DNA from: an uncultured Alphaproteobacteria bacterium
GTDB lineage: Bacteria > Pseudomonadota > Alphaproteobacteria > JAGOMX01
Length of the DNA: 64,000 nt
Assembly: GCA_963780985.1 (NCBI GenBank)
Contig: CAWAEF010000031.1
Span: 17,286-81,285 of the forward strand
Reading direction: 5' to 3'
Of the stretch, positions 11,147 to 32,763 are shown in pieces; the stretch's first letter is position 1; every line of letters begins with the position of its first letter. The position numbers and the translations under genes were made by a program. Under the pieces are notes generated by a model. It did no database searches. It was given only the letters and a program-made list of their open reading frames with translations, and was not told the origin of the DNA.

Positions 11147-11380
11147 ATGCAAACACATATTCAAAAATGGGGAAATAGTTTAGGGGTACGTATTCCTGCC
11201 AAGTTAGCTCACCAACTTAACATGAAGGCAGGCGGCGCTGTAGACATCTCCGTTGAAGATAATCATTTAGTTGTGAATCCTCAAAGATATCAACTTGATG
11301 ATATGATAGAGAACATAACGAAATGCAACTTGCAACATAATTTGCTCGAAGGTTCTGGCGTGGGTGTTGAAGAATGGTAA
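11147..11380 (+). CDS. mazE: MazE/PemI-type antitoxin (AbrB/SpoVT fold)
   Basis: 77 aa. MQTHIQKWGNSLGVRIPAKLAHQLNMKAG is the typical swapped-hairpin N-terminus. It overlaps the toxin gene by 7 nt. Confidence 0.85.
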   Translation: MQTHIQKWGNSLGVRIPAKLAHQLNMKAGGAVDISVEDNHLVVNPQRYQLDDMIENITKCNLQHNLLEGSGVGVEEW

Positions 11381-11709
11381 AATACGTGCCTGATCGAGGC
11401 GATATCGTGTGGCTAGAATTTGATCCACAAGCTGGATGCGAAATCCAGAAAAGGCGCCCCGCTGTCGTCATCTCACCTAAAAAATACAATTCCAAAACCA
11501 GCCTGGCTGTCTTCATGCCCGTAACAAGCCAAGTCAAAGGGTATCCGTTTGAATGTACATTCAAACTAAAGGAAATACAGGGCGCCATTTTGTCTGACCA
11601 GATCCGGTCCTTAGACTGGAAAGCTAGAAGGGCTAAGTTAATCACAAAAATTCCCGGGGACGTTCTGGAGGAAGCTGTTGAGAAGTTTAGTCTTTTATTG
11701 CGTGGATAA
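11374..11709 (+). CDS. mazF: MazF/PemK-type endoribonuclease toxin
   Basis: 111 aa. VPDRGDIVWLEFDPQAGCEIQKRRPAVVISP...FMPVTSQVKGYPFE matches the PemK/MazF pattern. Confidence 0.88.
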   Translation: MVKYVPDRGDIVWLEFDPQAGCEIQKRRPAVVISPKKYNSKTSLAVFMPVTSQVKGYPFECTFKLKEIQGAILSDQIRSLDWKARRAKLITKIPGDVLEEAVEKFSLLLRG

Positions 11710-11929: not shown

Positions 11930-13474
11930 ATGAGCAAAGAAACTGAAGTAATTAGCAAGCCCGTTGAGGCTCCCGAGTTCGGGAAAATCAGAGCAGCCCT
12001 CTGGCCAATTTATGGTTATGAGATGAAGAAATTCCTGCCCATGGGCCTGATGATGTTCTTCATTCTGTTTGATTACACCATTCTCCGAAGTACCAAAGAC
12101 GCGATTCTCGTCCCCGTTGCGGGATCGGCTATTATTCCTTTCCTTAAAGGACTTATCGTAATGCCGGCGGCCATTCTTTTTGTGGTTTTATACTCGAAAC
12201 TTGTAAATACGTTCAAACCGGCAACGGTCTTTTATATGATCGCGGGCTTCTTTATAAGCTTCTTTGCTTTATACGCCTTCGTTATCTTTCCTAACAACGA
12301 GTTCCTTTTGCCCGATCCTGCGTATATCAAGGCTTTGCAAGCGGAGTATCCAAGGGTTCAACATATTATCGCTATTTATGCCTACTGGACGGATTCGCTG
12401 TTTTATACCTTTGCGGAGCTGTGGGGCAGTATTATGCTTTCCCTGTTGTTCTGGCAGTTCGCCAACGAGATAACCAGAACCCGTGAAGCATCGCGCTTTT
12501 ATGCGTTGTTTGGTCTACTTGGAAACTTGGGCTTGATTCTTTCCGGTTACGTTTTGACGACTGCTTCTTCCATTCAAAAAGCATCGGGCGGCGGACCAGA
12601 GGCTTTTGCTGGCACATTACATTACACAATGGGTGCGGTTATCGTTGCAGGCTTCATTGTTGTCTTCCTGTATAACTGGATGCAGAGAAACGTTCTGACA
12701 GATCCGCTGTATTACGATGCGGCTGAGAAAAGCGGTAAGGTTAAGATTAAGAAGCCAAAGATGTCCGTGGGCGAAAGCTTTAAATACCTATTGAAGTCTA
12801 AGTACATCATGTTCATCGCATTGTTGGTTTTGGCTTACGGTATTGCCATGAACCTGATTGAGTTGAACTGGAAGGAAATTCTGAGGAAGCAATATCCAGA
12901 ACGCATTGATTATCAGCACTTCATGGGTCTGGTTCAGTACGCTATGGGTGGTACGACCATTATTGCGATCTTGTTCTTCAAGGGCGTTGTCCGCAGGTTT
13001 GGTTGGTTCACCGGTGCTATTACGACGCCTCTGATGATGTTAGTGACAGGCGCAATCTTCTTCTCGTTCGTGTTGTTTGAGGACTTCATGTCACCGATCG
13101 CGGCCATGATTGGTGTGACCAGTCTGCTGATGGCGGTAGCCGTGGGAACCATTCAGAACGTGTTGAGTAAGGGTACAAAATACTCACTGTTCGACCCAAC
13201 CAAGGAGATGTCATACATACCCCTTGACCAAGAGCTTAAAACCAAAGGCAAGGCAGCCGTTGACGTTATCGGTGGCCGCTTAGGTAAAGCTGGTGGTGGT
13301 TACATCGTGGGAGCCATGTTTGCAATCACAGGTGCGGCCGACGTGCTGTCGATTACACCGATGATGGCTGTGGCCGTTTGTATCGTCATCCTGATCTGGA
13401 TCTTTGCCGTCTATGGCCTGAATGGTATGTACCAGAAAGCTGTTGCTGAGGCTGAGAAAAAGAAGGCCGAGTAG
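11930..13474 (+). CDS. tlc: ATP/ADP translocase (nucleotide transport protein, Tlc/NTT family)
   Basis: 514 aa, 12-TM type. The N-terminus FGKIRAALWPIYGYEMKKFLPMGLMMFFILFDYTILRSTKDAILV resembles Rickettsia/Chlamydia Tlc. Confidence 0.9.
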   Translation: MSKETEVISKPVEAPEFGKIRAALWPIYGYEMKKFLPMGLMMFFILFDYTILRSTKDAILVPVAGSAIIPFLKGLIVMPAAILFVVLYSKLVNTFKPATVFYMIAGFFISFFALYAFVIFPNNEFLLPDPAYIKALQAEYPRVQHIIAIYAYWTDSLFYTFAELWGSIMLSLLFWQFANEITRTREASRFYALFGLLGNLGLILSGYVLTTASSIQKASGGGPEAFAGTLHYTMGAVIVAGFIVVFLYNWMQRNVLTDPLYYDAAEKSGKVKIKKPKMSVGESFKYLLKSKYIMFIALLVLAYGIAMNLIELNWKEILRKQYPERIDYQHFMGLVQYAMGGTTIIAILFFKGVVRRFGWFTGAITTPLMMLVTGAIFFSFVLFEDFMSPIAAMIGVTSLLMAVAVGTIQNVLSKGTKYSLFDPTKEMSYIPLDQELKTKGKAAVDVIGGRLGKAGGGYIVGAMFAITGAADVLSITPMMAVAVCIVILIWIFAVYGLNGMYQKAVAEAEKKKAE

Positions 13475-13502
13475 TTTATCTTACTGAAATTACTTATAAA
13501 CA

Positions 13503-13537
13503 AATCCCGTCTGCTTAACCGCGGGCGGGATTTTTTA
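13503..13537 (+). terminator. rho-independent terminator after tlc
   Basis: Stem atcccgtc...ggcgggat is followed by tttttt. Confidence 0.6.
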
Positions 13538-13623
13538 TTAGAATTTGACACTTAACCATCGGTGGTTGACACCACGTCTCCCTGTTATATAATCCTCACT
13601 TCGACCTCAAAAAGGAAAGTTTT

Positions 13624-14943
13624 ATGGTTACCAGCACAGTCGCTTTTTTCGATCGTATGATGCGGGAATACACGCCAGATCCGTTTTTGCTATGTCTCTT
13701 TTTGACCATACTTCTCTTCTTCATGGGTATCTTCATGACGCCGTCCACACCTAAGGAAATGGTGTTCTATTGGGGCGAAGGCTTTTGGGCGTTGATTCAA
13801 TTTACCATGCAGATGGTTATGATCCTGGTGGGTGGTTATGTCATCGCTATTGCAGAGCCTTCTCGTAAGTTTTTGGCCAGCATCGCATCCACGGTGAAAA
13901 CATCTGGGCAAGCGGTAGTGGTGATTACTTTGGTGGCGCTGACGGCTTCGTTCATCAACTGGGGATTGGGCCTTGTGGTGGGTGGAATCTTGTGCCGTGA
14001 AATATACAAGGTCCTGCCGACGGCCAACTATCGTTTGTTGGTGGCCAGTTCCTACAGTGGTTTTATCGTTTGGCATGGCGGCCTCTCGGGCTCCATCCCA
14101 CTGGTCATTGCCACCCCTGGAAACTTTACGGAACACCTGATCGGCGGCACGATCCCGATCACTGAGACGTTATTATCACCCCTGAACATCGCAGCCGTGA
14201 CCGGTATGTTTATCTTGCTGCCCTTATCCAACTGGATGTTAGGCCGTGTCTACCCCAACAGTACACCCGTCGTGCTCCAAGAAACTCCCGCGCAATCTAA
14301 GCCACTCAAGGACGTATATATGGGGCCCGCAGAACGGCTCGAGAACAGTCGTTTGTTTTCCCTGGCCATATCAGCCATGGGCTTTACCTACATAGGGATT
14401 CAGGTTGCAGAGCATAATTTCCGATTCACCCTCAACGATGTAAACTTCTCTCTCTTGTTCCTGGCAATATTCCTACATGGCACACCTCGGTCACTCATCA
14501 ACGCCATCAGTGAAGCAGCCTCAAAAGTAGGCCCCATCCTGCTGCAGTTCCCATTCTATGCAGGGATCATGGGCATGATCGAATCCTCAAAGCTAGCGGA
14601 CCTCATCTCCAATTGGTTCGTAGAAACCGCAACAGTCCATACCTTCCCATTGCTGGCGTTCTACAGCGCAGGCTTGCTAAACCTGTTCATCCCCTCGGGC
14701 GGAGGCCAGTGGGCGGTACAAGGCCCCGTGATCCTAGAGGCCGCCACCAAAATGGGCGCAAGCATCCCGTACGCAGCCATGGCAGTCGCCTGGGGAGACG
14801 CCTGGACAAACCTGCTGCAACCTTTCTGGGCACTACCCGTACTAGCCATCGCTGGTCTGCAGCTACGGGAGATCATGGGTTACTGCGTGGCATTACTATT
14901 TATAACAGGCGCTTACTTGAGTTTCGTGTTTTTGGTTTTTTAA
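13624..14943 (+). CDS. short-chain fatty acid transporter (AtoE/TIGR00366 family)
   Basis: 439-aa polytopic membrane protein. The family assignment rests on my recognition of overall sequence character, not on a computed match. Confidence 0.75.
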   Translation: MVTSTVAFFDRMMREYTPDPFLLCLFLTILLFFMGIFMTPSTPKEMVFYWGEGFWALIQFTMQMVMILVGGYVIAIAEPSRKFLASIASTVKTSGQAVVVITLVALTASFINWGLGLVVGGILCREIYKVLPTANYRLLVASSYSGFIVWHGGLSGSIPLVIATPGNFTEHLIGGTIPITETLLSPLNIAAVTGMFILLPLSNWMLGRVYPNSTPVVLQETPAQSKPLKDVYMGPAERLENSRLFSLAISAMGFTYIGIQVAEHNFRFTLNDVNFSLLFLAIFLHGTPRSLINAISEAASKVGPILLQFPFYAGIMGMIESSKLADLISNWFVETATVHTFPLLAFYSAGLLNLFIPSGGGQWAVQGPVILEAATKMGASIPYAAMAVAWGDAWTNLLQPFWALPVLAIAGLQLREIMGYCVALLFITGAYLSFVFLVF

Positions 14944-15050
14944 GTCTTACGGCTTGTTTATCTCACATGATGGGCAGAGAACTTTTCTTGATGACAAGAG
15001 GGGCTTGGGTTGGATACAATTCCCTAAATGATTAAAAAAAGGGGAATCTT

Positions 15051-15710
15051 ATGATCAAGAAAACGTGTCTGTACTGCAGCATCCTAATGACCATGTTCAT
15101 TGTTCAGGAAGCGCATTCGTCAAAGTTATTGCCTGAAATGGAAGTAGTTCTGAGTAGACATATGCCTAATGGGATACAGACGCGTCCTGCTGAAAATCTC
15201 CGCCACACATTCGCCCTTACGCCTCGTTTAGTGGTTGTGTATGTAAATAATGCTCATCGTTGGAGGTCGAGGATTTACGCAGAGTTGAATTCCTATATCG
15301 CCTTTAAGGAACGTCAAGCTGATTTTATGTCGCAAATGAGCCAGGCGAATCCGCTGATCTCGCTTGATAAGGTAGTGTCCATCTATGCTTCCCCCAGGGA
15401 ACCGGGCGGCAGCGGATCACTTACCAAAAAGCAACCTCTTGAGGCGGACATATCTGAGTTTGTAATTTTGTCGGACTTGGATTTCACAGCGACAGAGCTA
15501 TTAAATGAGACTCCTTACTACTCGAGCTTGTTGGTAGCAGGAGGCGACTCTCTAGCTGAAATTCTGAAGTCTCTTAATATCGGCCAAGCTGACGTTGCCA
15601 TGCTTCTGTTTAATAAGGGTGTTTGTGAGAAGGAAGTAAGGATCCCAGAAGAGGTACTGAGATATAGATACGGAAAGATGGCTTTGTTGGATTTAGAGCA
15701 TTTTAAGTGA
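15051..15710 (+). CDS. hypothetical secreted protein
   Basis: 219 aa with signal-like MIKKTCLYCSILMTMFIVQEAHS. I recognise no family. Confidence 0.6.
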   Translation: MIKKTCLYCSILMTMFIVQEAHSSKLLPEMEVVLSRHMPNGIQTRPAENLRHTFALTPRLVVVYVNNAHRWRSRIYAELNSYIAFKERQADFMSQMSQANPLISLDKVVSIYASPREPGGSGSLTKKQPLEADISEFVILSDLDFTATELLNETPYYSSLLVAGGDSLAEILKSLNIGQADVAMLLFNKGVCEKEVRIPEEVLRYRYGKMALLDLEHFK

Positions 15711-15750
15711 TTGTTATTGCGCCGAGTCAGTTATTCTTCTCCATTCGGCC

Positions 15751-15980
15751 GTCATCCTGAACGGACGACTGCGAAGCGGGCGGTAGTGAAGGATCCAGTC
15801 AAACATGTGTCGCGTAGCGACTCTGCTTATAAATATATCAAACAAATAAATGATACAAGCAGCTGTCTATATGATGTCATACAATATGATTGGGACCATC
15901 TGCAGCAGAGTCGCTTCGCGACACATGTTTGACTGGATCCTTCACTACCGCCCGCTGCGCGGTCGTCCGTTCAGGATGAC
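15751..15980. repeat. 230-bp long-stem palindromic module (family B), stand-alone copy
   Basis: gtcatcctgaacggacgactgcgaagcgggcggtagtgaaggatccagt ... actggatccttcactaccgcccgctgcgcggtcgtccgttcaggatgac. Confidence 0.9.
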
Positions 15981-16046
15981 GGTCGGGTGTGGCTGACGCG
16001 GTCGTCCTTTAATGGGGCGGCGGCCTGCGTTTTAGGAGCAAGAGCA

Positions 16047-18794: not shown

Positions 18795-18820
18795 CAGTTA
18801 TCAGTTGTTCGTCAGTAGTT

Positions 18821-18916
18821 AGAATCCAGAATCTAGAATCTAGAATCCAGAATCCAGAATCCAGAATTCGGAATCTAGAATCCAGAATTCGGAATTCAGA
18901 ATCTAGAAAATCTAGA
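18821..18916. repeat. tandem heptamer array (AGAATCY, about 13 units)
   Basis: agaatcc agaatct agaatct agaatcc agaatcc agaatcc agaattc ggaatct agaatcc agaattc ggaattc agaatct ... read directly. Confidence 0.9.
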
Positions 18917-19061
18917 TTACGTAATTCAAAATCGTAAAACGTCACCAAGGGTAGCAAAAACAGTATGCGCATCTCCAGCCCGTCAATGCGAGTAACCGAC
19001 AATCCCTGTAGGGGGTCGATTTTACACGATGACCGGTCGGTTGTTAGAATGGTGATGGCCG

Positions 19062-19198
19062 CCAGCTGCCTCCCCTGCGAAAGCAGGGGCCCAGCCCTTA
19101 ACATGTGCTGCGTAGCAGCTCTGTATAGAAATACAGAGTCACTGCCGCGACACATTTTGCGCTGGACCCCTGCTTTCGCAGGGGAGGCAAGCTGGGGG
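19062..19198. repeat. 135-bp palindromic element, family A, copy 2 (inverted orientation)
   Basis: ccagctgcctcccctgcgaaagcagggg ... cccctgctttcgcaggggaggcaagctggggg. It is nested inside the pyrH-tsf palindrome. Confidence 0.85.
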
Positions 19199-19375
19199 CA
19201 ATCATCTCCCCTTGAACGCCTTGGCCATCAGAAGGAGCGAGGATCCATAGCAATCTAGTGCAGCACTTGACTATGTGTACCAGTCTGGACTATCGCACTG
19301 GGTTGTCACGGTGCCGCGCGCTGCGCAGCACCTCTCAATGACGGGCTGCTGGAGAGCCAAAATCTGACCCCGGAG

Positions 19376-19420
19376 TCTAGATTCCAGATTCTAGATTCTA
19401 GATTCCGGATTCCGGATTCT
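19376..19420. repeat. tandem heptamer array, reverse complement of the 18821 array (RGATTCT, about 6 units)
   Basis: tctagattcc agattct agattct agattcc ggattcc ggattct read directly. Confidence 0.9.
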
Positions 19421-19433
19421 ACCCCCTCAACCC

Positions 19434-20360
19434 TTACTTATTCAATTGTGCAGCAACTTCCGCTGCAAAATCTGTTTCTTCCTTTTCAATACCTTCGCCC
19501 AAGCCAAAGCGGATAAAGCCTTTGAGCTCAACGGGTGTACCAAGTTCTTTTGCGGCATCTTCAAGGACGTCTTTAACGCGCTTGTCAGGGCCCATAACGA
19601 ATTCTTGCTCGATGAGGACGACTTGCTCATAGTATTTGCGCATGCGGCCATCGATCATCTTGTCTAGGAATTCAGCAGGTTTGCCGGAAGCCTTGGCCAT
19701 ATCTTCATGAACGGCGCGCTCCTTGGCAACCAGCGCCTGATCCAACTCGTGGATGAATGCAGATTGCGGGTTCGTTGCTGCCACGTGCATAGCGATTTGT
19801 CTTGCGACCTCATAAAGGCGCTTGGTATCGCCGGTGGATTCGAGGCCAACCAGCACACCAATTCGGCCAAGGCCTTCGGCTGTTTGGTTGTGCACATAGG
19901 ATGCCACTACGCCTTGCTTTACTTCCATGAGCTCCGCACGGCGGAAAGTCATGTTTTCGCCAATAGTCGCGATCAAGTTTGTGAGCTCAGTCTCAACAGT
20001 GTTGCCGGTGCCGGGATAGCTAGCAGCTTTCAAAGCATCGGGATTAGTTCCCTCGTTTAAAGCAATTTTCGCGAGGGTGGAAACATATGCTTGGAACTGG
20101 TCGTTACGAGCAATGAAGTCTGTTTCTGCATTGACTTCAACGCAGGCACCCTTATTGCCAGCCGTAGCCACGCCAACCAGACCCTCAGCCGCAACGCGGC
20201 TTGCCTTCTTAGATGCAGCAGCCAAACCCTTTTTGCGCAGCCAGTCAGCTGCCGCTTCAATATCACCATTGGTTTCTGCGAGTGCTTTTTTGCAATCCAT
20301 CATGCCCGCGCCCGTACGATCGCGTAGTTCCTTGACCATTGCAGCTGTTACTGTAGACAT
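19434..20360 (-). CDS. tsf: translation elongation factor Ts
   Basis: 308 aa. The N-terminal UBA-like VKELRDRTGAGMMDCKKAL is present, and it follows rpsB. Confidence 0.95.
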   Translation of the reverse strand: MSTVTAAMVKELRDRTGAGMMDCKKALAETNGDIEAAADWLRKKGLAAASKKASRVAAEGLVGVATAGNKGACVEVNAETDFIARNDQFQAYVSTLAKIALNEGTNPDALKAASYPGTGNTVETELTNLIATIGENMTFRRAELMEVKQGVVASYVHNQTAEGLGRIGVLVGLESTGDTKRLYEVARQIAMHVAATNPQSAFIHELDQALVAKERAVHEDMAKASGKPAEFLDKMIDGRMRKYYEQVVLIEQEFVMGPDKRVKDVLEDAAKELGTPVELKGFIRFGLGEGIEKEETDFAAEVAAQLNK

Positions 20361-20478
20361 TGTCTAACCCCTTTTATTTTAGTATCTGTTATTTCGATTT
20401 CTTGCGGGGAGTCCAAGCTCACCCATAAGCAGCCAGGGAGCCGCGACCATAAGATCGCGCGCTCCAGGCAGTGCTATA

Positions 20479-21708
20479 TTACTTCTTTTCCTTAGCTGCA
20501 GGCTTAGCCTTAGCAGCCGCAGGCTTTTCGGCCTTAGTTGCAGCTTCCGCTTTCTTGGCAGGAGCAGCAGCTTTTTCAGCCTTGGGTGCAGCTTCCGCTT
20601 TCTTAGCAGGAGCAGCAGCTTTTTCAGCCTTAGGCGCAGCTTCCGCCTTCTCGGCAGGAGCAGCAGCTTTTTCAGCCTTAGGCGCAGCTTCTGCCTTCTT
20701 CGCGGGAGCAGCAGCCTTTTCAGCCTTAGGAGCAGCTTCTGCCTTCTCGGCAGGAGCAGCGGCTTTTTCAGCCTTAGGTGCGGCTTCTTCCTTCTTTGCA
20801 GGTGCTTTAGCTTCAGTCTTCTCAGCTGCTTTCTTTGCAGGAGCTTCAACCTTAGCTTCAGGCTTCTTAGCAGCTTCAGCCTTCGGAGCCGCCTTCTTAG
20901 CAGGAGCTTCTGCTTCAGCCTTTGGTGCCTTCGCAGGTTTTTCTGCAAATGCCGCAATGACTTCGAGCTCGCTCGCAGGAAGCTCAACGGCTTCGCCTAG
21001 ATCAATACCCGCTGCGACCATCTGGTCAGAAAGACCATCAAGAACTGCACCAGCAAATAGGTCACAGAAGAAACGAATAGAACGCAGTGCGTCATCGTTG
21101 CCAGGAACCGGATAATCGATTTCGGACGGGTCAGAGTTACTGTCGACCACGGCCACGATTGGTAGGCCTAGTTTACGTGCTTCTTTAATGGCTGTGAGCT
21201 CTTTATTGGTGTCAATAATCACCAAGATGCTAGGCACGCCACCCATCTCGCGGATACCGCCGATGGCACGTTCCAACTTTTCGCGCTCGCGCGTCAGTTG
21301 CAGAATCTCTTTCTTCGTCAAACCCTTTTCAGGATTGTTCAATGCTTCTTCATACTCACCCAGTCTCTTAATAGACCGAGAAACAGTCTTCCAGTTGGTC
21401 ATCATGCCGCCCAACCAACGGTGGTTGACGTAGTACTGACCACATCGACTTGCTGCTTCAGCGATGACGGCGGAAGCTTGAGGCTTTGTGCCCACGAATA
21501 GCACGCGGCCACCCTTGGTCACCACATCGTGCACGGCCTTCAATGCTTCTTCGAGCATCGGCACAGTTTTTTCTAGGTTGATAACGTGGACATTGTTACG
21601 AACGCCAAACAAATAGGGCTCCATACGTGGATTCCAACGGCGAGGGTGATGTCCAAAGTGAATGCCAGCTTCAAGCATCTGGCGCATAGTAAATGTAGGT
21701 ATAGCCAT
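20479..21708 (-). CDS. rpsB: 30S ribosomal protein S2 with about 155-aa Ala/Lys/Glu/Pro repeat C-terminal extension
   Basis: The N-terminal 250 aa is canonical S2 ([13 protein letters not shown]...). The tail begins near residue 255 (20482-20946). Confidence 0.93.
20545..20784. repeat. 48-bp in-frame tandem repeat (5 units) inside the rpsB tail
   Basis: It encodes [12 protein letters not shown][EK]KAE x5. The 48-nt DNA periodicity is visible directly. Confidence 0.85.
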
Positions 21709-21862
21709 AATTTTACTCCTATTCCGGTTATATCCTCCGCAGGGACTGCCATTTCTAGCACCGGAGCGACCGACAACCGTCGTGCGCTATCCTGCGTGTG
21801 TTTTAATGTATAGGGTATAGCCGTTTTCGCGACTTATTACAAGTGTTTTTGACAACCATTCC

Positions 21863-22506
21863 TTACTTCGTTCCAAACAGTCTATCGCCCGCATCGCCTA
21901 AGCCTGGGACGATATATGCGAGCTCATTAAGGTGATCATCCAGAGCGGCGGCGAAGATGGGGATGTCGCTGTATTTCTCGTTGAAAACCGCAATGCCCTC
22001 AGGCACGGTAACCAGGGCAAGAAACAGAATTTTCTTACGATCAACGCCACGTTCCACCAGTATATCCAGCGCTTTTACCGCCGAATAACCTGTGGCCAGC
22101 ATAGGGTCTACCACGATGAAGATTTGATCCTCTATAGGGGGTAGTTTGACCAGATATTCAACAGGCCGATGTGTTTCGTGATCCCGATAAAGGCCGATGT
22201 GTCCCTCGTTGGATGTAGGTATAAGTTCCCGCAAGGCATCAGCCATGCCCAGGCCAGCTCTTAATATAGGGACGATGGTCACGTCATGGCCGTCGAATAC
22301 TCTTCCCGTGGTAGAAGCCACCGGCGTTTGAATCGTCACGGTTTTGGTGGAAAGTCCTTGGTGACTTCATATCCCATTAGCAAAGCAATTTCCCGCAGCA
22401 GGCGCCTGAAATGGCCAGACCTAGTCTCCTCCATACGCATGAGGGTCAGTTTATGTTGGATGAGTGGATGGTTGATAACGTGTAAATTCGCAAAAGAATG
22501 AGCCAT
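21863..22506 (-). pseudogene. upp: uracil phosphoribosyltransferase interrupted by one frameshift
   Basis: N-terminal piece [24 protein letters not shown]...[11 protein letters not shown] and C-terminal piece TIQTP...ILRAGLGM...DPMLATG...PGLGDAGDRLFGTK lie in different frames. They join near the T4 run at 22342-22345, and adding one base restores PPKTVTIQ. Confidence 0.85.
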
Positions 22507-22578
22507 GGCTGTCCCCATATGTTTGTGTTCATAATCTTTTCGCATTCTTAGGGGCGGATTGCAAGGTACAAATAAGGT

Positions 22579-23917
22579 TTAATCGTTCAATCGTCGCGGT
22601 CGGGCGGGGTGGGTTTCTTTGATGAAGCCTAGCATGAATAGCGATAACGACAGGCATATTGGGATTACCGCCAAGGCATAGCGATAGTCCACTTCGTTAT
22701 AGACTGGATGGCCGTCCACCATTAATCCATTCCAACTTAAGTCGAGCATTTTGCCTACCAGTGGGTGATAGAAAGCGCCGCAGGCCATCACCAACATGTT
22801 GCTAAAGCCCACGCTGACACCGCTGGAAGAGGGCGGCATGATTTCGGTCATGCTGGCAAAGCAAAGGCACTTGGCGGTATAGCTGAAGCCAGCGATGAAG
22901 AATAGGGCGTACATTACAGAAAGAGGTATACCATGGACAAATACCACGATCATGTAGACGCTCAACGAGGTAAGGCCGCCTATGTACATAGGAATGCGTC
23001 GGCTTCTAAGCCTATCTGAAAGGGTTGTGTAACAGGGCTGCCCAGGGCTGCGCCTAAGAATAAGCTGGTGTTGATCAGTGCGGCTTCGGTTTTGCCTATG
23101 CCATAGATGCTCTCGATAAAGGGGACGCTCCAGGCGTCTCCCATGATGATCATGGGTGCATACATCAGGGTGCTGAACCCAGAGATGAACCAGGCTTGTG
23201 GCGATTTCAGAACGCGCTTCAATCCACCAAACATGTGCTCTTTAGGGCCCGTTCGCACTGGCATATCGCCTGAAGGCGTATTGCGCACGAATATGAAAAT
23301 GATCGTACCAATGGCCAGACCCACAACTCCCAATACCTGTAGGCTCCCTGCCAACCAACCGTATCAATCAAATATCTCAAAGGGGGACCGCCTAAGGCAG
23401 CGCCCGATGTGCCTAAGACCATGGCCAGGGCTATGACGTTGCCGATTTTTTGGGGTGGAAACCACATGGTGCCAAGTTTGATGGTGCCAGGCAGGCCGCT
23501 GGCGGCGCCCATGCCCATCATAAAACGGGCAAAGCCAGCTACATAAAAGTTTGTGGTCATGGAAAAGATAAAACAAGCTATGCCGCAGATAAACCCGGCC
23601 AGTGACAGCAATCGCCTGGGGCCAAATTTGTCCATGGTGATGCCAAGGGGGATCTGCATACCCGAATAGGTCCAGTAATAAAAGCCAACCATCAAGCCAA
23701 ACGCAGCGGCGTCAATGCCGAGAGCCGTCATGATTTCGTTGTTGAGAACGTTCGGGAATACACGAATGACGAATTGATAGCAATAGAATACACCCGCGCA
23801 GGTAACCATAAACCATGCGCGCTTGCTACCCAAAAGGGATGTGTCAGCCTGAGTATCTGCTTCAGCTCTCTTCATACGGCCCTGTAAATTCAGATGTCCA
23901 AAAGACAAGTCAATCAC
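22579..23917 (-). pseudogene. MFS transporter interrupted by two frameshifts
   Basis: Three consecutive ORFs (23219-23917, 22980-23354, 22579-22989) together make one 12-TM-type MFS protein. The junctions lie near 23351-23352 and 23022-23024, and each is restored by adding one base. Confidence 0.8.
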
Positions 23918-24067
23918 AGCAGGGGAAAAAACACAAGATTTTTCGAACCTTCGCTGTTACTGGCGGTAATTTTAGATTGAAACAATGAGCGTGTTCTCGT
24001 ATTATTTTGGTGACTAATTTACGTAGCCCATGGGCGGGGGAAGTCGTTAATAATATGGAGACTTTCA

Positions 24068-24670
24068 ATGCTTAAAAACACCAGGTCAAAGATGGTAGAT
24101 AAAGAAGCCCTACGCAAAACGGCTATGGACAGGCGACTGGCGTTTGTGTCCAGCCTTAGCTTTGGCACGCTGGAGCGGGTATCCCTTGGGCTTGTGGAGC
24201 GTTTTCAGCAGTATTTCCAGATTCCGAAAGACTATGTGATTAGCACTTATTTTCCTAAAGCTGACGAGCAGAATGTGCGGCTGCTGAATTTCTTCCTGAC
24301 TGAGGAAGGATATGTGATGGCCTACCCCCGCGTGGAAGAATCAGGGAATTTAAGTTTTCGGCAAGTCCATTCGACCAAAGAGCTAGAAATGGGATCCTTC
24401 GGGGTCATGCAGCCGTCTGAATCGGCACCCATGGTAGATCCGGATCTTTTCATCGTGCCGCTGTTGGCTTTTGATGTCCGCTGTCATCGCTTAGGCTATG
24501 GTAAGGGACATTACGATAGAGCCCTTGCCCAGGCTCGAGCAGACAGGAATGTTTTGGCAATTGGCGTCGCATATGATATGCAGAGAATAGATGAAATACC
24601 AGATGAGCCACTGGACGAGCAATTGGAGTTTGTCGTGACGGAGGCTCGGATATATAAGGCTGAAATGTAA
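24068..24670 (+). CDS. 5-formyltetrahydrofolate cyclo-ligase
   Basis: 200 aa with the C-terminal family motif VPLLAFDVRCHRLGYGKGHYDRAL. Confidence 0.85.
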   Translation: MLKNTRSKMVDKEALRKTAMDRRLAFVSSLSFGTLERVSLGLVERFQQYFQIPKDYVISTYFPKADEQNVRLLNFFLTEEGYVMAYPRVEESGNLSFRQVHSTKELEMGSFGVMQPSESAPMVDPDLFIVPLLAFDVRCHRLGYGKGHYDRALAQARADRNVLAIGVAYDMQRIDEIPDEPLDEQLEFVVTEARIYKAEM

Positions 24671-25488
24671 TGAAGTTATTATTTTGCGGAGACGTCGTAG
24701 GACGGTCCGGTCGGGAAGCTGTCCTGAAAGAAATTCCTCGTCTTAAAGAAAAACACGCCTTGGACGTGATCGTTGTGAACGGCGAGAATTCTGCCGGTGG
24801 CTTTGGAATTACGGGTACTATTGGCAAGTCATTCTTTGACGCCGGGGTCGACATTATCACCACTGGCAACCATGTTTGGCGGCAAAAGGATGTGGTGTCC
24901 TATATCAGCAACGAAAAACGTTTGCTGCGGCCTATGAACTATTCCAACAAAAAGCTACCGGGCGCAGGCATCGGTGTTCATAAGATGAAGGATGGCCGCA
25001 ACTTTGTTGTGCTCCATGCCTTGGGTCGGTTGTTTATGCCCGACCAGGTGGACTGTCCATTTTATGCCATCGATGAAGTTTTAGAGGCCGTGAACCTGTC
25101 CAACAAGAACGTTGCCGGCATTATGCTGGATTTCCATGGGGAAGTAACCAGCGAGAAGATGGCCATGGGCCATTTCTTGGATGGGCGCGTTTCATTCGTA
25201 GTAGGCACCCATACCCATGTGCCGACGGCAGATGCCATGATATTGCCCAACGGTACGGCCTATCAGTCAGACGCCGGTATGTGTGGGGACTATAATTCGG
25301 TTATCGGTATGGATAAAAAAATCCCCATCGCTAAGTTTTTGGGCAAGCTCGTCGACGCGAAGATGGAGCCCGCCATGGGTGAAGCGACTTTGTGTGGCTG
25401 CCTTGTGGAGATCAGCGATGAGACTGGGTTGGCAACGAAAATTGATCCTATTCGCATCGGCGGGGTATTAAGTCAAACGGGAGCGTAA
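24670..25488 (+). CDS. YmdB-like metallophosphoesterase (TIGR00282 family)
   Basis: 272 aa with MKLLFCGDVVGRSGR, NGENSAGGFGIT and ITTGNHVW. Confidence 0.85.
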   Translation: MKLLFCGDVVGRSGREAVLKEIPRLKEKHALDVIVVNGENSAGGFGITGTIGKSFFDAGVDIITTGNHVWRQKDVVSYISNEKRLLRPMNYSNKKLPGAGIGVHKMKDGRNFVVLHALGRLFMPDQVDCPFYAIDEVLEAVNLSNKNVAGIMLDFHGEVTSEKMAMGHFLDGRVSFVVGTHTHVPTADAMILPNGTAYQSDAGMCGDYNSVIGMDKKIPIAKFLGKLVDAKMEPAMGEATLCGCLVEISDETGLATKIDPIRIGGVLSQTGA

Positions 25489-25491
25489 GAC

Positions 25492-26268
25492 ATGTTTGTG
25501 GACAGCCATTGTCATTTAAATTATCCAGAATTTACCAACGACCTCGATGGGGTGATCAACAGGGCGGCGGATGTGGGCATAACTAAGATGCTCACCATCT
25601 GTACGGAGCTTTCTGAGGCACAAGCTGTTCTCGATATCGCCAACTCGCGGGATGAAATTTACTGTTCCGTGGGCGTGCATCCTCATGAGGCAAAACTAGC
25701 CGTCGAGGAGGGTGGCCTTTACGAGGGGCTGAAGCAGTATACCCAGTTCAAGAAAGTGGTTGGTTTGGGCGAGACTGGTCTGGACTATTATTACGAACAC
25801 AGTCCCAAGGCCGCCCAGCAAGAGGCTTTCGAGGCGCATATACGCGTGGCCAAAGAAACAGGGCTGCCGTTGATTATCCATACCCGGGATGCGGAGGAAG
25901 ACACCATCGCTATGCTCCGCAAGGAGCAGGGAAACATTACCGGCGTGATCCACTGTTTCAGTGGCACCCAATGGCTCTGTGACCAGGCATTGGCGCTTGG
26001 CTTCTATATTTCCATTTCCGGGATTGTGACCTTTAAGAAGGCCGAGGAGATTCGTGAGTCTGTGAAAACGGTTCCTTTAGATCGGCTGCTGTTGGAAACA
26101 GATGCACCCTATTTGGCGCCAGTGCCCATGCGAGGAAAAGGCAACGAGCCGAGCTTTATGATTCATACAGCCAAGACCGTTGCGGAACTCAAAGATATCA
26201 GCATGGATGAGCTCGCCAAGGTAACAACCAATAATTTTGCCATCCTGTTTAATAAGACGATGCTGTAG
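25492..26268 (+). CDS. tatD: TatD family metal-dependent hydrolase
   Basis: 258 aa with MFVDSHCHL, GETGLDYYY, IHTRDAEEDT, IHCFSG and ETDAPYLAP. Confidence 0.9.
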   Translation: MFVDSHCHLNYPEFTNDLDGVINRAADVGITKMLTICTELSEAQAVLDIANSRDEIYCSVGVHPHEAKLAVEEGGLYEGLKQYTQFKKVVGLGETGLDYYYEHSPKAAQQEAFEAHIRVAKETGLPLIIHTRDAEEDTIAMLRKEQGNITGVIHCFSGTQWLCDQALALGFYISISGIVTFKKAEEIRESVKTVPLDRLLLETDAPYLAPVPMRGKGNEPSFMIHTAKTVAELKDISMDELAKVTTNNFAILFNKTML

Positions 26269-26291
26269 TATAGTGCTTCGAATATTACACT

Positions 26292-26400
26292 GGCTCTTGT
26301 GCATAACGGGTGGGTTATATGTAATCTTCTGCCCCCGTAGACGTCATCCTTCACTACCGCCCGCTTCGCGGTCGTTCGTTCAGGATGACGGTCAAGGGGG
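26292..26400. mobile_element. truncated and collapsed copy of the TIR element
   Basis: The left TIR ggctcttgtgcataacgggtgggttatatgtaatcttctgccccc is present. It is joined to a collapsed long-stem module (26343-26389). The right outer arm is absent. Confidence 0.7.
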
Positions 26401-26422
26401 GCAGCGTCAATGATTTAAAGCT

Positions 26423-26764
26423 CTAACCCAACTGTATAGGCTTTTCCTCAATCTTCGGGCCAAATGTCTTTGGCTCCCATTCCATTGATTCCCAAAGAGT
26501 CTTTGGTTCAGGAGGTTTCGGTGGCGCTGGAGGGTAGCCCGCTATAAATTGTCTTTCTTGTTCCGCCTGCGGCTGCGCATAACAATCGGCCGTAGCCAAG
26601 GTCTTATAACAGTACAAGGGCTGAGGATAGAATTTAGTCCCATAGGGCGCATAGTCCCGGGCTTGAATCATTTCAGACGTGTAAAATTCACCATTAAGCC
26701 ATTTACTGCCACAGCCGGCTAATGTGAACGCCACGAAAGTTAAGGCTACAAGTTTATATCGCAT
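26423..26764 (-). CDS. hypothetical lipoprotein
   Basis: 113 aa. MRYKLVALTFVAFTLAGCGS is a signal peptide plus lipobox LAGC. Confidence 0.7.
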   Translation of the reverse strand: MRYKLVALTFVAFTLAGCGSKWLNGEFYTSEMIQARDYAPYGTKFYPQPLYCYKTLATADCYAQPQAEQERQFIAGYPPAPPKPPEPKTLWESMEWEPKTFGPKIEEKPIQLG

Positions 26765-26918
26765 AAGGTCTGGATTCCTTTTCTACATTACTCATGCAAT
26801 TACCATGCCAGGTAGTGTGGGAAAAAGAGAAGGCAAATACAAGGGGGTTGTCTGTCCGATCCTTCTATGGCACAATTTAGATGAAGTAACAAAATGAAAG
26901 AAAAGGGAGATTTTTCAC

Positions 26919-27308
26919 ATGCAGATGATTAAGTGCGCTTCTCTAACAATTTTTCTGGGCCTAACTTTGAATACATCGGTTTTTGCTAGCAATACGGATT
27001 CTGTAAGTGACGAACCTCTCTCACTCCGCTACGCATCCCCTCAGTCGATACAAACATTAATTATGGCGCCAGAGACGAATGCTAAGACTGATGGTCCCTT
27101 TGGGACTTTTATTAATGACATCGATCAGGGGCTTGAAGAAATCCTTTCTCCAGCCGAAGTTAAACCTAAAGGTGACATTGAATGGACACCGGAAATGCGT
27201 GTGAAACTAGATCAAATAATCGGTATGGTCGTCCAGATAAATCGTAGTATTTATGATCTAGAAATTGGTATGGCGCAACTTATATACGTAAATGGACGTG
27301 GCTACTAA
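26919..27308 (+). CDS. hypothetical secreted protein
   Basis: 129 aa with signal-like MQMIKCASLTIFLGLTLNTSVFA. Confidence 0.6.
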   Translation: MQMIKCASLTIFLGLTLNTSVFASNTDSVSDEPLSLRYASPQSIQTLIMAPETNAKTDGPFGTFINDIDQGLEEILSPAEVKPKGDIEWTPEMRVKLDQIIGMVVQINRSIYDLEIGMAQLIYVNGRGY

Positions 27309-27488
27309 AATTCTAATGCTTAACTCCAGGCCCACTTCTGCTCACAGTTAGGAGCGATTGTGTCCACATGTCTGGAGTTTCCCCCTTTCCTTCAATTCTT
27401 TTCTGAGATGGCAAAAACCTTTGACATAATGCCACTTAAAGTTTAAGTATAACCTCATATTCGTATCTCATATTTTTATGCAAAGGAA

Positions 27489-28925
27489 ATGTTCATGCAT
27501 GCGGTAATTTTATCTGGTGGCGTCGGTAGTCGTTTGTGGCCTGTTTCTCGGGATATGCATCCCAAGCCATTTATGAAGCTGTCCGACAGGCAAAGTTTCC
27601 TGCAGAAAGTATATTTGAGAAGTGCGGCGATCCCTTCGACGCAAAGTATTACGACGGTCACGAATAAAGAGTTGTTCTTTAAGACGAAGCAAGAATTTGA
27701 CGAAGTTAAGAGTCTTGCCGATCATAACGTCGATCTCAATTTCATTACGGAACCTTTCGGACGCAATACGGCTGCGGCTATTGCTTTGGCTGCTTTGAAG
27801 ATTTCTGAGTTATATGGACCAGATTCAATCATGCTGGTGCTGCCTTCTGACCACGTTATTTCTAATCAAGAGGCTTTTGCACAAGCAGTATCCCAGGCTG
27901 AACATTTGGCTCGCCAGGGCAAAGTTGTTACTTTTGGCATTAAGCCAAGCTCCCCGGAAACTGGGTATGGATATATCGAGGCCAAGGGCTTTGATGTTGT
28001 CCGCTTTGTGGAAAAACCTTCATTAGAGCAAGCTGAGATTTACTTAAGTGAAGGTAAGTATTTGTGGAATTCGGGTATGTTCTGTTTTTCTGCGGAGACG
28101 ATGCTGAAGGAAATGCAGGCTCTGTGTCCGGATATTCTGGCTGCGGCCAAAAAATGTTTCGCGTGTTCGAAAGTCGCCGATACGGCTGCATACAGGCATT
28201 TAGAAGTGGATTCTGCAACCTTTAAGGACGTGCCATCCAATTCCATTGACTATGCCATCATGGAAAAGACGACCCATGCGGCCATTATCCCTTGCGACAT
28301 TGGCTGGAGTGACATCGGGACCTGGACGGCTATCAGTGAGTTTTCTGTGCTGGATTCCGATGGTAACAGCATCAATGGCGATGTCATCACCCACGATGTG
28401 AAGAACTGTTATATCCAAAGCCGTGATCGCGTGATCGGTGCGGTGGGCCTTGAGGATCTGATTATCGTGGATACGGAAGACGCGATTCTGGTGGCCAATA
28501 AGAAGAAATCCCAGGAAGTTAAGAATATTTATGCTCAATTAAAGCATGATGGTCACGAGGCGCATAAGCTGCACAAAACCGTGCAGCGGCCCTGGGGAAC
28601 CTATACGGTTTTGGAAGAGGCGCCAGGGTTTAAGATCAAGCGCATTGAGGTGCTGCCAGGGGCTCAGTTGAGCTTGCAGATGCACAACCATCGCGCGGAA
28701 CATTGGGTGGTAGTAAGTGGCACCGCTCTCGTGGTCAATGGCGAGGAAGAAATGACTCTGGGTGTGAGCCAATCCACCTATATTCCCACAGGCAACAAAC
28801 ACCGCTTGAGCAATCCGGCTGAGGATTTGCTTGTGATGATTGAAGTCCAGACAGGGGCATACCTGGGTGAAGACGACATCATTCGATTCGACGACATCTA
28901 TGGACGTGCCAAAGATGCCGCATAG
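27489..28925 (+). CDS. manC: mannose-1-phosphate guanylyltransferase / mannose-6-phosphate isomerase (bifunctional type II PMI-GMP)
   Basis: 478 aa with the N-terminal ILSGGVGSRLWPVSR nucleotidyl-transferase motif and a C-terminal cupin (RPWGTY...QMHNHRAEHWVVVSG). Confidence 0.92.
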   Translation: MFMHAVILSGGVGSRLWPVSRDMHPKPFMKLSDRQSFLQKVYLRSAAIPSTQSITTVTNKELFFKTKQEFDEVKSLADHNVDLNFITEPFGRNTAAAIALAALKISELYGPDSIMLVLPSDHVISNQEAFAQAVSQAEHLARQGKVVTFGIKPSSPETGYGYIEAKGFDVVRFVEKPSLEQAEIYLSEGKYLWNSGMFCFSAETMLKEMQALCPDILAAAKKCFACSKVADTAAYRHLEVDSATFKDVPSNSIDYAIMEKTTHAAIIPCDIGWSDIGTWTAISEFSVLDSDGNSINGDVITHDVKNCYIQSRDRVIGAVGLEDLIIVDTEDAILVANKKKSQEVKNIYAQLKHDGHEAHKLHKTVQRPWGTYTVLEEAPGFKIKRIEVLPGAQLSLQMHNHRAEHWVVVSGTALVVNGEEEMTLGVSQSTYIPTGNKHRLSNPAEDLLVMIEVQTGAYLGEDDIIRFDDIYGRAKDAA

Positions 28926-30288
28926 TCTCGCTTGCTTTAAAGCCTACGATATTCGTGGGCGTGTGCCTGACGTGCTGAGTTATGATTTAGCTTATGATAT
29001 TGGCCGTGCCTATGCGCGGGTTATTAATCCTGGAACGGTCGTTGTGGGTTATGATATCCGCTTAGAGAGCCCAGAGATGGCCAATCGCCTGATGCAGGGT
29101 CTCAATGACGAAGGTGTCAACGTTATCAATATTGGACTATGCGGTACGGAAGAAGTTTATTTCCAAACCTTTGATCGAGGTGTGGGCGGCGGCATCATGA
29201 TAACGGCCAGCCATAACCCCAAGGGGTACAATGGTATGAAGTTGGTGCGTGAGAATTCGATCCCTATTTCAGGGGATTCCGGACTATTCGCGATCCGCGA
29301 TCTGGCGGCCCAGTTGCAGGCAGAGCGGCTTCCGTCTAAGGGACCGATAGGCAACATCAATGAGGACTTTGATAAGAGCCGCTATATCTCCCATATTCTG
29401 GGCTATGTGGACACGGACTTACTAAAACCCCTCAAAATCGTCGTAAACCCTGGCAATGGCGGGGCAGGGCTTATCATTAAGCTGCTGGAGCCACATTTGC
29501 CCTTTGAATTTATTTACATCAATGAAGAGCCCGATGGGAATTTCCCCAACGGTGTGCCTAACCCGTTGTTGCCCGATGCGCGGTCGCTTACAGCCGATGC
29601 GGTGAAGCTGCATGGCGCCCATATGGGTATTGCTTGGGATGGCGATTTTGATCGCTGTTTCTTGTTCTCAGAAAATGGCGACTTCATTGAGGGCTATTAC
29701 ATCGTAGGCTTGTTGGCGGCGGCATTTCTTAAGAAGTCTAAGGGTGAGAAAATTATTCATGATCCCCGCCTTACTTGGAATACCATTGATATGGTGGAAC
29801 AAGCAGGCGGACTCGCCATTCAAAGTAAAACCGGCCACGCCTTTATCAAAGAACGTATGAGGGAAGAGAACGCAATCTATGGCGGCGAGATGAGTGCCCA
29901 CCACTATTTCCGCGATTTCGCGTACTGCGACAGCGGCATGATTCCCTGGTTGCTGGTGGCAGAGCTAATGTGCATCGCCGGCAAACCCCTGTCCCAGATG
30001 GTGGAAGAGCGCATCGCAGCTTACCCTTGCAGCGGCGAGATCAACTATAAGGTTGAGAACGCACCGGCAGTGATCGCTGGCATAATGAAGTCCTACGAGT
30101 CCCAGAATCCCAAGGTCGAGAACATCGATGGGCTGAGCCTAGAGTTTCCAGAATGGCGTTTGAACCTGCGAACATCCAACACGGAGCCTTTGCTGCGGTT
30201 GAATGTGGAGACCCGGGCGGATCAGAAACTGTTGTGGGAAAAGGTTTCTGAGGTTGAGGCGCTGTTGGGTCAGGGGACGAGTTCTTAA
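28915..30288 (+). CDS. manB: phosphomannomutase
   Basis: The start is taken at ATG 28915 (MPHSLACFKAYDIRG). The active-site loop TASHNPKGYNGMK and GIAWDGDFDR are present. It overlaps the manC stop by 11 nt. Confidence 0.9.
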   Translation: MPHSLACFKAYDIRGRVPDVLSYDLAYDIGRAYARVINPGTVVVGYDIRLESPEMANRLMQGLNDEGVNVINIGLCGTEEVYFQTFDRGVGGGIMITASHNPKGYNGMKLVRENSIPISGDSGLFAIRDLAAQLQAERLPSKGPIGNINEDFDKSRYISHILGYVDTDLLKPLKIVVNPGNGGAGLIIKLLEPHLPFEFIYINEEPDGNFPNGVPNPLLPDARSLTADAVKLHGAHMGIAWDGDFDRCFLFSENGDFIEGYYIVGLLAAAFLKKSKGEKIIHDPRLTWNTIDMVEQAGGLAIQSKTGHAFIKERMREENAIYGGEMSAHHYFRDFAYCDSGMIPWLLVAELMCIAGKPLSQMVEERIAAYPCSGEINYKVENAPAVIAGIMKSYESQNPKVENIDGLSLEFPEWRLNLRTSNTEPLLRLNVETRADQKLLWEKVSEVEALLGQGTSS

Positions 30289-30313
30289 ATCTTAGTACCA
30301 TGCCCCAACACCC

Positions 30314-32720: not shown

Positions 32721-32763
32721 CTTGTAACTACTCACCAAATATTGCCAGGGGTGGTAACATCTT

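Follow-up and report, generated by a model that had tools for sequence, protein, structure and literature searches.

Palindromic repeats tagged with CGTC occur in many bacterial phyla and were tied to SsnA nucleases in 2025. For the NTS/Ssn-related motif (SRM; consensus CGTCATTCCCGCGMAVGCGGGAATCYRG), Chenal et al. 2025 (PMC11893778) characterized SsnA, a 94-amino acid (aa) single-domain GIY-YIG protein, whose binding to the motif requires single-stranded DNA and is confined to one strand, and which cleaves a few nucleotides upstream; the bases most important for SsnA are the three that precede the palindrome and the C that follows it, and the gene is typically flanked by the motif. Mobility of the unit formed by the gene and its repeats was raised in that work and left open, and miniature derivatives were not described there (PMC11893778). 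Di Nocera et al. 2013 (PMC3733652) found the CGTC class of repetitive extragenic palindromes (REPs) mostly as inverted dimers, sometimes inside other palindromes, and found no dedicated enzyme. Here we analyze a 64,000-nucleotide (nt) stretch of contig CAWAEF010000031.1 from an uncultured alphaproteobacterium (hereafter, the window) and, in it, a 230-bp palindromic repeat denoted module A, which, judging from its alignment with a gene-bearing relative, is very probably a non-autonomous, internally deleted derivative of a cassette in which two such arms flank a GIY-YIG gene of about 300 bp.

The window contains four full copies of module A, each consisting of inverted arms of about 80 nt around a centre of about 75 nt (the spans quoted here include the terminal C and G, 232 nt in copy 1). 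Copy 1 (15750-15981, plus strand; left arm 15750-15827, centre 15828-15903, right arm 15904-15981) is located between convergent genes, and an orthologous copy is present in the metagenomic locus L064. Copy 2 (30313-30544, plus strand) has co-directional neighbours, encoding a phosphomannomutase and an ABC-2 permease; contigs of this organism assembled from short reads end inside this copy, and such assemblies break at each module. Copies 3 (42264-42502, with a 7-nt insertion in the centre) and 4 (53568-53799), both on the plus strand, are nested in another repeat, denoted host element C, and copy 4 carries a G..A haplotype on both arms (GGGAGAGAAGG / CCTTCTCTCCC). The inverted repeats of copies 1 to 4 span 82, 80, 87, and 77 nt, with 95%, 94%, 86%, and 87% complementarity, respectively, and an arm-to-arm distance of 74-85 nt. 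Thus, the original prediction of a repeated palindromic unit that exists in stand-alone, nested, and collapsed forms was borne out, with two copies standing alone, two nested, and coordinates off by 0-2 nt; the inverted arms that it described as near-perfect and 50-70 nt long are real, although longer (77-87 nt, 86-95% complementary). Ten matches to the terminal 19-mer, GTCGTCCGTTCAGGATGAC, are present in the window, whereas shuffled sequences predict 0.00. The predicted fold of a whole copy is a single hairpin (-101.7 kcal/mol, z = -19.7 as DNA; -169.2 kcal/mol, z = -22.7 as RNA), a stability that is trivial because it follows from the inverted repeat. An Rfam scan of the window yielded a tRNA as the sole match and no family for module A.

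The identity of module A emerges from comparison with metagenomic sequences. A metagenome scan with a 20-mer from the arm recovered 70 loci (524 kb), nearly all from one JGI metagenome. Locus L089 is 98.6-98.9% identical to window positions 18821-30332 (about 98.7% over 11.5 kb), and L064 is 96.3% identical to positions 13499-15977; by sequence identity, these loci are assigned to the same population as the window organism or a sister one. L095 contains, at 6600-7094, an intact open reading frame (ORF) of 100 aa between module-type arms, which are 97.6% and 94.9% identical to the left-arm query of window copy 2; the ORF matches the Pfam GIY-YIG domain (residues 5-75, E = 1.6e-14) and contains no second domain. 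This ORF has 250 homologues, mostly 95-97 aa in length. It is 49% identical to a 97-aa GIY-YIG protein of Azospirillum; in Azospirillum lipoferum, the gene is an insertion between sufB and sufC and has a canonical motif pair on either side. Its best match in the protein collection is only 65% identical, and that homologue is flanked by single canonical motifs. Its 49% and 65% identity to these homologues associated with canonical motifs indirectly supports a placement of the L095 ORF in the SsnA type. An ssnA-type gene with the motif on both sides was found in L095, not in the window.

In the alignment of the two elements (alignment A2), module A is collinear with L095 apart from one gap of about 265 nt. 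It retains both arms, the untranslated upstream stretch with the conserved TTATAAATAT, and the first ~17 codons of the gene; thereafter, the sequence resumes just before the right inner hairpin. In copy 1, this gene remnant maps to 15850-15900 (plus strand) and, by ORF translation and alignment A2, reads MIQAAVYMMSYNMIGTI against MKQPAVYMMSNKMNGTI in the intact L095 gene. Module A thus shares both its termini and internal sequence with a longer coding element, from which it differs by an internal deletion, as miniature inverted-repeat transposable elements (MITEs) do. The remnant matches the conserved N-terminus, MKQPAVY..NGT(I/L)Y, of homologues in other organisms, and therefore the gene-bearing cassette is ancestral and module A derived. 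The original prediction saw a hairpin-type element as such and missed this identity, that is, an internally deleted ssnA-type cassette with CGTC-REP/Ssn-related arms. The conserved TTATAAATAT was also considered as a promoter and dropped, given that a consensus scan of L095 detected no sigma-70-like site upstream of ssnA.

The arms themselves connect module A to the described repeats. From the outside to the inside, an arm comprises the CGTC tag, an ATCC...GGAT stem base around a 33-nt interior, a CCAG tail, a short spacer, and a mini-hairpin, GTCGC-NNN-GCGAC. In copy 1, the outer left arm (15750-15798, plus strand; mirrored on the minus strand at 15933-15981) reads CGTC, ATCC, the 33-nt interior with a CCGC-GAA-GCGG mini-hairpin, GGAT, and CCAG, and the inner mini-hairpin is GTCGC-GTA-GCGAC (15809-15821, plus strand), with GTCGC-TTC-GCGAC as its right-arm partner (15910-15922). 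We compared the outer left arm with the NTS/SRM consensus (PMC11893778) and with the arms of a second palindromic family in the window, denoted family B. The CGTC-ATCC head, the GGAT-CCAG tail, and the CCGC-GAAG-CGGG core loop all align with NTS (CGTCATTCCCGCGMAVGCGGGAATCYRG) and with the SRM-matching arms of family B; by this comparison, the outer part of the arm is identifiable as an expanded CGTC-REP/Ssn-related motif. Among the 47 full copies recovered (four in the window and 43 in metagenome loci, 22 of them exactly 230 nt long), all start with CGTCATCC and end with GGATGACG, single-base variants allowed. In an alignment of 44 copies, columns 2-7, with the CGTC tag, are invariant; the C-starting tail (CCA / CYRG), represented here by GGAT-CCAG, is nearly invariant in both arms; and little or no variation is seen at the positions reported as key for SsnA, namely, the three bases that precede the palindrome and the C that follows it.

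The family B element at 55659-55789 (plus strand) consists of two canonical Ssn-related motifs in inverted orientation (AGTCATCCCCGCGAAGGCGGGGATCCAG), with an inner hairpin and a centre of about 10 nt; together with the copies at 5328-5467, 19059-19198, 32762-32901, 41047-41184, and 57329-57467, the family has six members in the window, with an outer hairpin of the type GTCATCCCCGCGAAGGCGGGGATCCAG. The inner mini-hairpin of family B, GTCGC-GTA-GCGAC followed by CTCTG, is the same as in module A (11 matches in the window against 0.00 expected), and the arms of the two families are homologous end to end, with about 11 additional bases in module A on either side of the CCGC-GAAG-CGGG core. A 27-mer of family B is found, identical and often in inverted pairs, in plasmids of Azospirillum, Photobacterium, Novosphingobium, and others, and these repeats correspond both to the CGTC-tagged REPs of Di Nocera et al. 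and to the NTS/Ssn-related motifs of Chenal et al.; module A itself produced no match in a blastn search against plasmids, and it was the family B arm alone that gave the lead.

All 47 copies share one deletion junction, that is, one deletion product has multiplied to dozens of intergenic sites. Every copy is intergenic, with none within a long ORF; the neighbouring genes are convergent in 15 cases, co-directional in 19, and divergent in 6. When the copies are oriented by the gene remnant, those in co-directional settings split 11 to 8, with no bias relative to the genes. The usual flanks are a run of C followed by a few variable bases on the left, and the complement of these bases followed by a run of G on the right; they are inverted rather than direct, and no target-site duplication, the mark of a MITE, was found in any of the 47 copies. 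Most copies occupy the precise centre of a different palindromic repeat. Outside element C, the copies are found in another palindrome (CATTAATTCTACCCCC), between inverted (GGATTCT)n arrays, in unique DNA (copies 1 and 2), and in other settings. In strains that are 96-99% identical, copies are retained at orthologous sites. A search of species-representative genomes for the terminal 19-mer (16 specified bases, 596 Gb) produced 32 single matches in unrelated taxa, where chance alone would yield about 35; accordingly, that genome collection does not include the source lineage. The closest homologue of the window phosphomannomutase is only 76% identical at the aa level, and the relative that encodes it (L037-L046) shows neither the module nor synteny.

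Several site-level differences between strains were observed. At the copy 1 site, about 35 nt between the upstream stop codon and the module are non-homologous between L064 (2690-2732) and the window (15712-15749), the gene and the module being conserved; L064 has the usual C-run flank, which the window lacks, and the left arms differ at two nearby positions. About 20 nt downstream of copy 1 (16000-16025), there is a degenerate fragment resembling a right-arm end (GACGCGGTCGTCCTTTAATGGGGCGG), which suggests an older decayed copy at the same site. At the copy 2 site (window 30313-30560), L089 (11972-12063) contains only a 19-nt hairpin and 13 nt of the right flank, followed up to the contig end by sequence found nowhere else; this is either a true presence/absence variant or an assembly artefact, and we treat it as an unreliable contig end at a repeat, as we do L125, in which copy 2 is joined to the flank of a different element.

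One copy of host element C is located at 53517-53881 (plus strand), where a terminal inverted repeat, CTCTTATGCAA...TTACATAAGAG, encloses module A at the centre; further copies are located at 2988-3140, 26290 to about 26420 (truncated), and 42213-42585. Element C hosts module A copies 3 and 4 as well as both collapsed forms. In the collapsed single-arm form at 26342-26390 (plus strand), within the truncated element C, CGTCATCC is joined to TTCACTACC...GGATGACG, with the junction at a direct repeat, ATCC(T). This site provides the sole usable strain overlap, full against collapsed: L089 (7833-8048) contains a full 216-nt copy at the orthologous position, with the same rare right-arm variant (GTCGTTCG), and the window sequence fits a deletion between the ATCC(T) repeats of the left head and the right tail. 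Because the full-length orthologue comes from a strain about 98.7% identical, deletion appears to be the simplest reading, which these sequences support, the direction of change resting on two strains. L079 and L090 again contain this junction, in one mirror version or the other, and other deletions use a 9-nt repeat, CGCTTCGCG (L058, L100). The second collapsed form, at 3040-3058 (plus strand), is a solo 19-nt terminal hairpin, GTCGTCC-GTTCA-GGATGAC (GTCGTCCGTTCAGGATGAC), at the centre of a complete element C; a like case is found in L109. This could be either a deletion remnant or an unoccupied target. Of the proposal that collapsed forms arise by deletion across a hairpin, then, both forms proved real and the one at 26342-26390 is backed by the full copy in L089, whereas the one at 3040-3058 is the terminal hairpin with its two possible origins.

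Module A resembles several described systems and differs from each of them. As in the NTS-ssnA-NTS arrangement (PMC11893778), there is a CGTC head, a stem base starting with AT, and a tail starting with C; two motifs are inverted around a single-domain GIY-YIG gene of about 95-100 aa; and many solo motifs are intergenic. SRM systems are enriched in host-associated bacteria, and the window encodes an ATP/ADP translocase and an F-box/leucine-rich-repeat protein. Unlike the SRM (about 28 nt), the arm of module A is about 80 nt long, a 33-nt interior replaces the 8-bp stem and 4-nt loop, a second mini-hairpin is present, and the abundant unit is an internal-deletion form that keeps the 5' end of the gene. 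With CGTC REP dimers (PMC3733652), module A shares the terminal CGTC, the CCA-type tail, the predominance of inverted dimers, conserved structured spacers, location downstream of genes, embedding in other palindromes (described in Halothiobacillus neapolitanus), and hybrid dimers (here in L071); it differs in that its spacer is a recognizable remnant of a nuclease gene and in that its stem and loop sizes fall outside the four described CGTC families. Doublets of REPs moved by REP-associated tyrosine transposases (REPINs and RAYTs; Bertels and Rainey 2011, PMC3116915) are likewise hairpin-forming inverted palindromic units that replicate as such, with a single repeat-flanked gene and some compensatory changes across the hairpin; however, their tag is GTAG rather than CGTC, the gene encodes a Y1/HUH transposase rather than a GIY-YIG nuclease, and REPINs carry no part of the RAYT gene. 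Finally, as in MITEs such as the Correia elements of Neisseria and the QMITEs of Coxiella, both termini are shared with a longer coding element, one deletion product has been amplified, the copies are intergenic, and elements are nested; unlike in MITEs, there is no target-site duplication, the partner is a nuclease without known strand transfer, and the arms greatly exceed typical terminal inverted repeats in length. What is unusual in module A is the expansion of the arms to about 80 nt and the persistence of the 5' end of the nuclease gene in the abundant unit.

By analogy with the characterized SsnA, the nuclease would bind and cleave the arms of module A in single-stranded DNA, recognizing the left arm on the top strand and the right arm on the bottom one and cutting a few nucleotides outside the CGTC tag; full-length copies would supply, in trans, the nuclease that propagates the miniature. 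New copies might arise by repair-templated copying at sites with a pre-existing CGTC hairpin, which fits the fixed orientation in element C and the lack of target duplication. The potential to form a long hairpin would then be a by-product of two inverted recognition arms and, being deletion-prone, would give rise to the collapsed forms, whereas the limited symmetry of the arms would stem from haplotypes exchanged or copied between arms and between copies rather than from strong selection for pairing. A broader proposal is that motif-ssnA-motif cassettes are true autonomous mobile elements using the GIY-YIG single-strand nuclease, that CGTC-REP inverted dimers generally are their gene-less miniatures, and that copying occurs without target duplication into palindrome tips, for example, by a nick at a resident CGTC hairpin followed by a repair-templated copy from an occupied site; we regard this as possible rather than probable.

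A number of observations weigh against the reading of module A as the mobile miniature of an ssnA cassette. The cassette was seen in metagenomic L095, which is tied to the window population only via shared repeats and neighbouring or co-occurring contigs, and no GIY-YIG gene was found in the 64-kb window, the sequence searched by regular expression, tblastn, and phmmer. No module A arm in the window matches the SRM pattern HGTCWYN(0-2)YYVSBRHN(0-5)WNVSBRGN(0-2)RNCYNB, which describes a unit of about 28 nt with an 8-9-bp stem and a 4-5-nt loop, given the 33-nt interior; the three matches (55662, 55754, 57431) all are family B arms. A single module A arm shows no significant structure (z about -1.2). 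About 30 of the 47 copies lie in element C, with the asymmetric right half of C always on the same side. Identity between copies reaches 95.6% at most, so that no very recent copying is seen, and an all-against-all comparison of the loci, among which there are almost no overlaps, yielded no clean pair of an occupied and an empty site. GIY-YIG nucleases cut DNA and do not join it, and we know of no complete transposition chemistry for them. In favour of that reading, the arms are far better conserved than the centre (mean pairwise identity 0.895 and 0.908 compared to 0.665), which points to constraint on the arm sequence, with the qualification that arm conservation is locally inflated by the choice of metagenome copies through an exact 20-mer in one arm.

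The original prediction had proposed that pairing between the arms is maintained, by selection on a DNA or RNA hairpin or by arm-to-arm repair, citing two paired changes in copy 4 (GGGAGAGAAGG / CCTTCTCTCCC, against GGTAGTGAAGG / CCTTCACTACC in copies 1 and 2). These changes are present; copy 3 is changed at the same two right-arm positions (CCTTCGCTCCC) with the left arm unchanged, that is, without compensation. Two data sets were analyzed, 90 aligned arms and the 44-copy alignment for pair counting, with shuffles and permutations that treat the copies as independent, such that kinship and arm exchange between copies are included in the counts. The arms of a copy are complementary at 91% of the positions (90 arms). 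In the 44 copies, the fraction of paired cells is 93.2% compared to 92.4% in shuffles (reached in 0 of 500), cells with a change on both sides number 49 compared to 30.7 (2 of 500), and pairs with a change on both sides number 12 compared to 9.4 expected (33 of 500 shuffles reach 12). The signal is limited to four of the 79 pairs, which are hypervariable and in which mismatched copies are about as common as compensated ones: 27/261 (AU 31, CG 6, other 5), 35/254 (CG 29, AU 3, other 11), 40/251 (UA 20, GC 7, other, unpaired, 17), and 43/248 (UA 24, AU 7, other 10). The last two of these pairs are the positions singled out in copy 4 and are multi-state hotspots. In the outer 53 columns, symmetric variants number 25, whereas permutation of the right arms between copies gives 10.0 +/- 2.7 (0 of 5000 reach 25); in the inner 27 columns, there is no association (29 compared to 29.3 expected). 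Five copies carry the G..A haplotype on both arms and about 8 carry it on a single arm, and their centres belong to different lineages; the "compensatory" pair of copy 4 is this recurrent arm haplotype, and the alternative offered originally, a single recent duplication of a symmetric variant, does not account for it either, given the different centre lineages. The excess of symmetry is small and real, and is not evidence of maintained pairing. Consequently, a structured RNA or single-stranded DNA hairpin with a long stem under selection and compensatory substitutions appears very improbable, even though the long hairpin is extremely stable and the paired and doubly changed cells exceed the shuffles: covariation is confined to four pairs with equally frequent mismatches and is nil in the inner 27 columns, no Rfam family matches, and the centre is a gene remnant. 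An apparent top-strand bias of G-T wobbles at two columns vanished over all columns (88 top, 69 bottom), and there is no orientation bias relative to the flanking genes. Moreover, the inner mini-hairpins of family B differ between arms (GTCGC..GCGAC and GCTGC..GCAGC), keeping their own stems and breaking the arm-to-arm pairing, which favours local hairpins, not the long stem, as the conserved units. Templated copying from arm to arm (quasi-palindrome template switching, or hairpin or cruciform repair) addresses only the "compensatory" pattern and is compatible with the derivation from an ssnA cassette. It would explain the excess of symmetric variants in the outer arms, the joint change, on many arms, of the two flagged sites, which are 3 nt apart, and the occurrence of symmetric G..A with different centre lineages rather than from one recent duplication. 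We nonetheless find it somewhat unlikely, given that most copies have fixed asymmetries that frequent copying would erase (the inner loop mostly has T on the left and A on the right), column 61 has fewer matches than expected by chance, single-arm carriers are about as common as double carriers, and the permutation counts include shared descent and exchange between copies.

The remaining alternatives concern the way in which the copies are maintained or spread. Conceivably, the arms are kept for host use, as in Neisseria, with an SsnA-type nuclease that controls recombination or incoming DNA and modules that serve as domesticated landmarks. In N. meningitidis, SsnA/NTS was shown to modulate transformation (PMC11893778), and the conservation of the arms (0.90) relative to the centre (0.665), the age of the copies (nearest neighbours at most 95.6% identical), and their persistence at orthologous sites in 96-99%-identical strains all are in line with such a function. 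The present data do not bear on transformation or recombination in the source organism; the spread of one internal-deletion product to dozens of sites is left unexplained by host use, and collapsed and decayed copies are common, so that we consider this explanation unlikely. Some copies of module A may have spread as passengers of element C, as indicated by the roughly 30 copies in C that have a fixed orientation relative to the module centre and by the existence of C without a full module. That most copies are passengers of C or of other host palindromes, moved by an unrelated transposase that recognizes the terminal inverted repeats of C, is distinctly unlikely: the module has at least four other flank contexts (unique DNA, the CATTAATTCTACCCCC palindrome, the heptamer arrays, and others), Pfam scans of essentially all long ORFs in the window detected no transposase domain, and homology-dependent copying into C would produce the fixed orientation just as well. 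Scarcely credible, finally, is a REPIN moved by a RAYT or a classical MITE of a DDE-type insertion sequence. A hairpin-forming, intergenic, inverted doublet in many copies is reminiscent of both, and REPINs have been reported with compensatory changes (PMC3116915); but module A carries CGTC instead of the GTAG tag, its full-length form codes for a GIY-YIG protein rather than for a Y1/HUH or DDE enzyme, and neither a target-site duplication nor, in the window ORFs scanned, a transposase domain was found, Y1_Tnp included.

The palindromic elements also nest in one another: in L068 (5730-5925), the centre of a module A copy contains an inserted composite of family B and its host. A hybrid in L071 (3870-4071) combines a family B left arm (CCTCCCCTGCGAAAGCAGGGGGCCAGC) with a module A right arm and a shortened centre, which indicates exchange between families B and A via the shared inner hairpin region. 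In the window, the family B copy at 19059-19198 is bracketed by inverted 7-nt arrays, (AGAATCC)n / (GGATTCT)n, at 18807-18911 and 19365-19420; like arrays in L095 (6540-6590 and 7100-7160) bracket the intact ssnA cassette, resulting in a larger palindrome. At 41010-41240, family B is nested in another palindromic host (CCAGGGCCTAYGCATGAA...TTCATGCGTAGGCCCTGG). Two loci with other ssnA homologues were also inspected. In L121 (1400-1940), the 65%-identical homologue, with a single canonical motif on each side, separates the hsdM and hsdS genes of a type I restriction system, and the insert is bounded by a direct repeat of about 26 nt (GAACTTCGAGGAGTTGGGG..ATGA) that duplicates the gene junction. 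In L123 (1790-2010), downstream of another ssnA homologue, there are motif-like units with CGTCATCAC...GTGATCCAC ends and an interior of about 50 nt; enlarged motifs thus occur outside the present lineage as well.

Among the other genes in the window are those for an F-box and leucine-rich-repeat protein (119-2143), a MazE/PemK toxin-antitoxin pair (11147-11709), an ATP/ADP translocase of the TLC family (11930-13474), and a T4-type terminase large subunit (57596-58888); these genes suggest a host-associated bacterium that carries remnants of phages. The ORF for ribosomal protein S2 (20479-21708, minus strand) has a C-terminal extension of about 180 aa that derives from 48-nt tandem repeats (20446-20915) rich in Lys, Ala, and Pro codons. 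Tandem repeats of 24 nt (56225-56455) lie within a 283-aa ORF (56209-57060, minus strand) with no Pfam match. Just upstream of the element C that hosts copy 4, three tandem units of about 101 nt (52999-53302; the second and third 82% and 71% identical to the first) overlap a 119-aa ORF that also has no Pfam match.

The presence of an intact cassette and a deleted miniature in one population, the latter with sharply delimited ends and at dozens of sites, together with the lack of target duplication and the insertion of elements at palindrome centres, is the pattern expected of a pair of autonomous and non-autonomous elements. These findings also call for caution in a more general respect: "compensatory" differences between arms can reflect arm haplotypes and shared recognition by a protein, and need not mean selection on a hairpin. 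The matched full-length and miniature forms provide the substrates, namely, the arms, the protein, and a candidate target hairpin, for a direct biochemical and genetic test of spread. If true, the proposed mobility of motif-ssnA-motif cassettes would define a class of prokaryotic mobile DNA apart from the DDE, HUH, serine/tyrosine-recombinase, and IS110-type elements.

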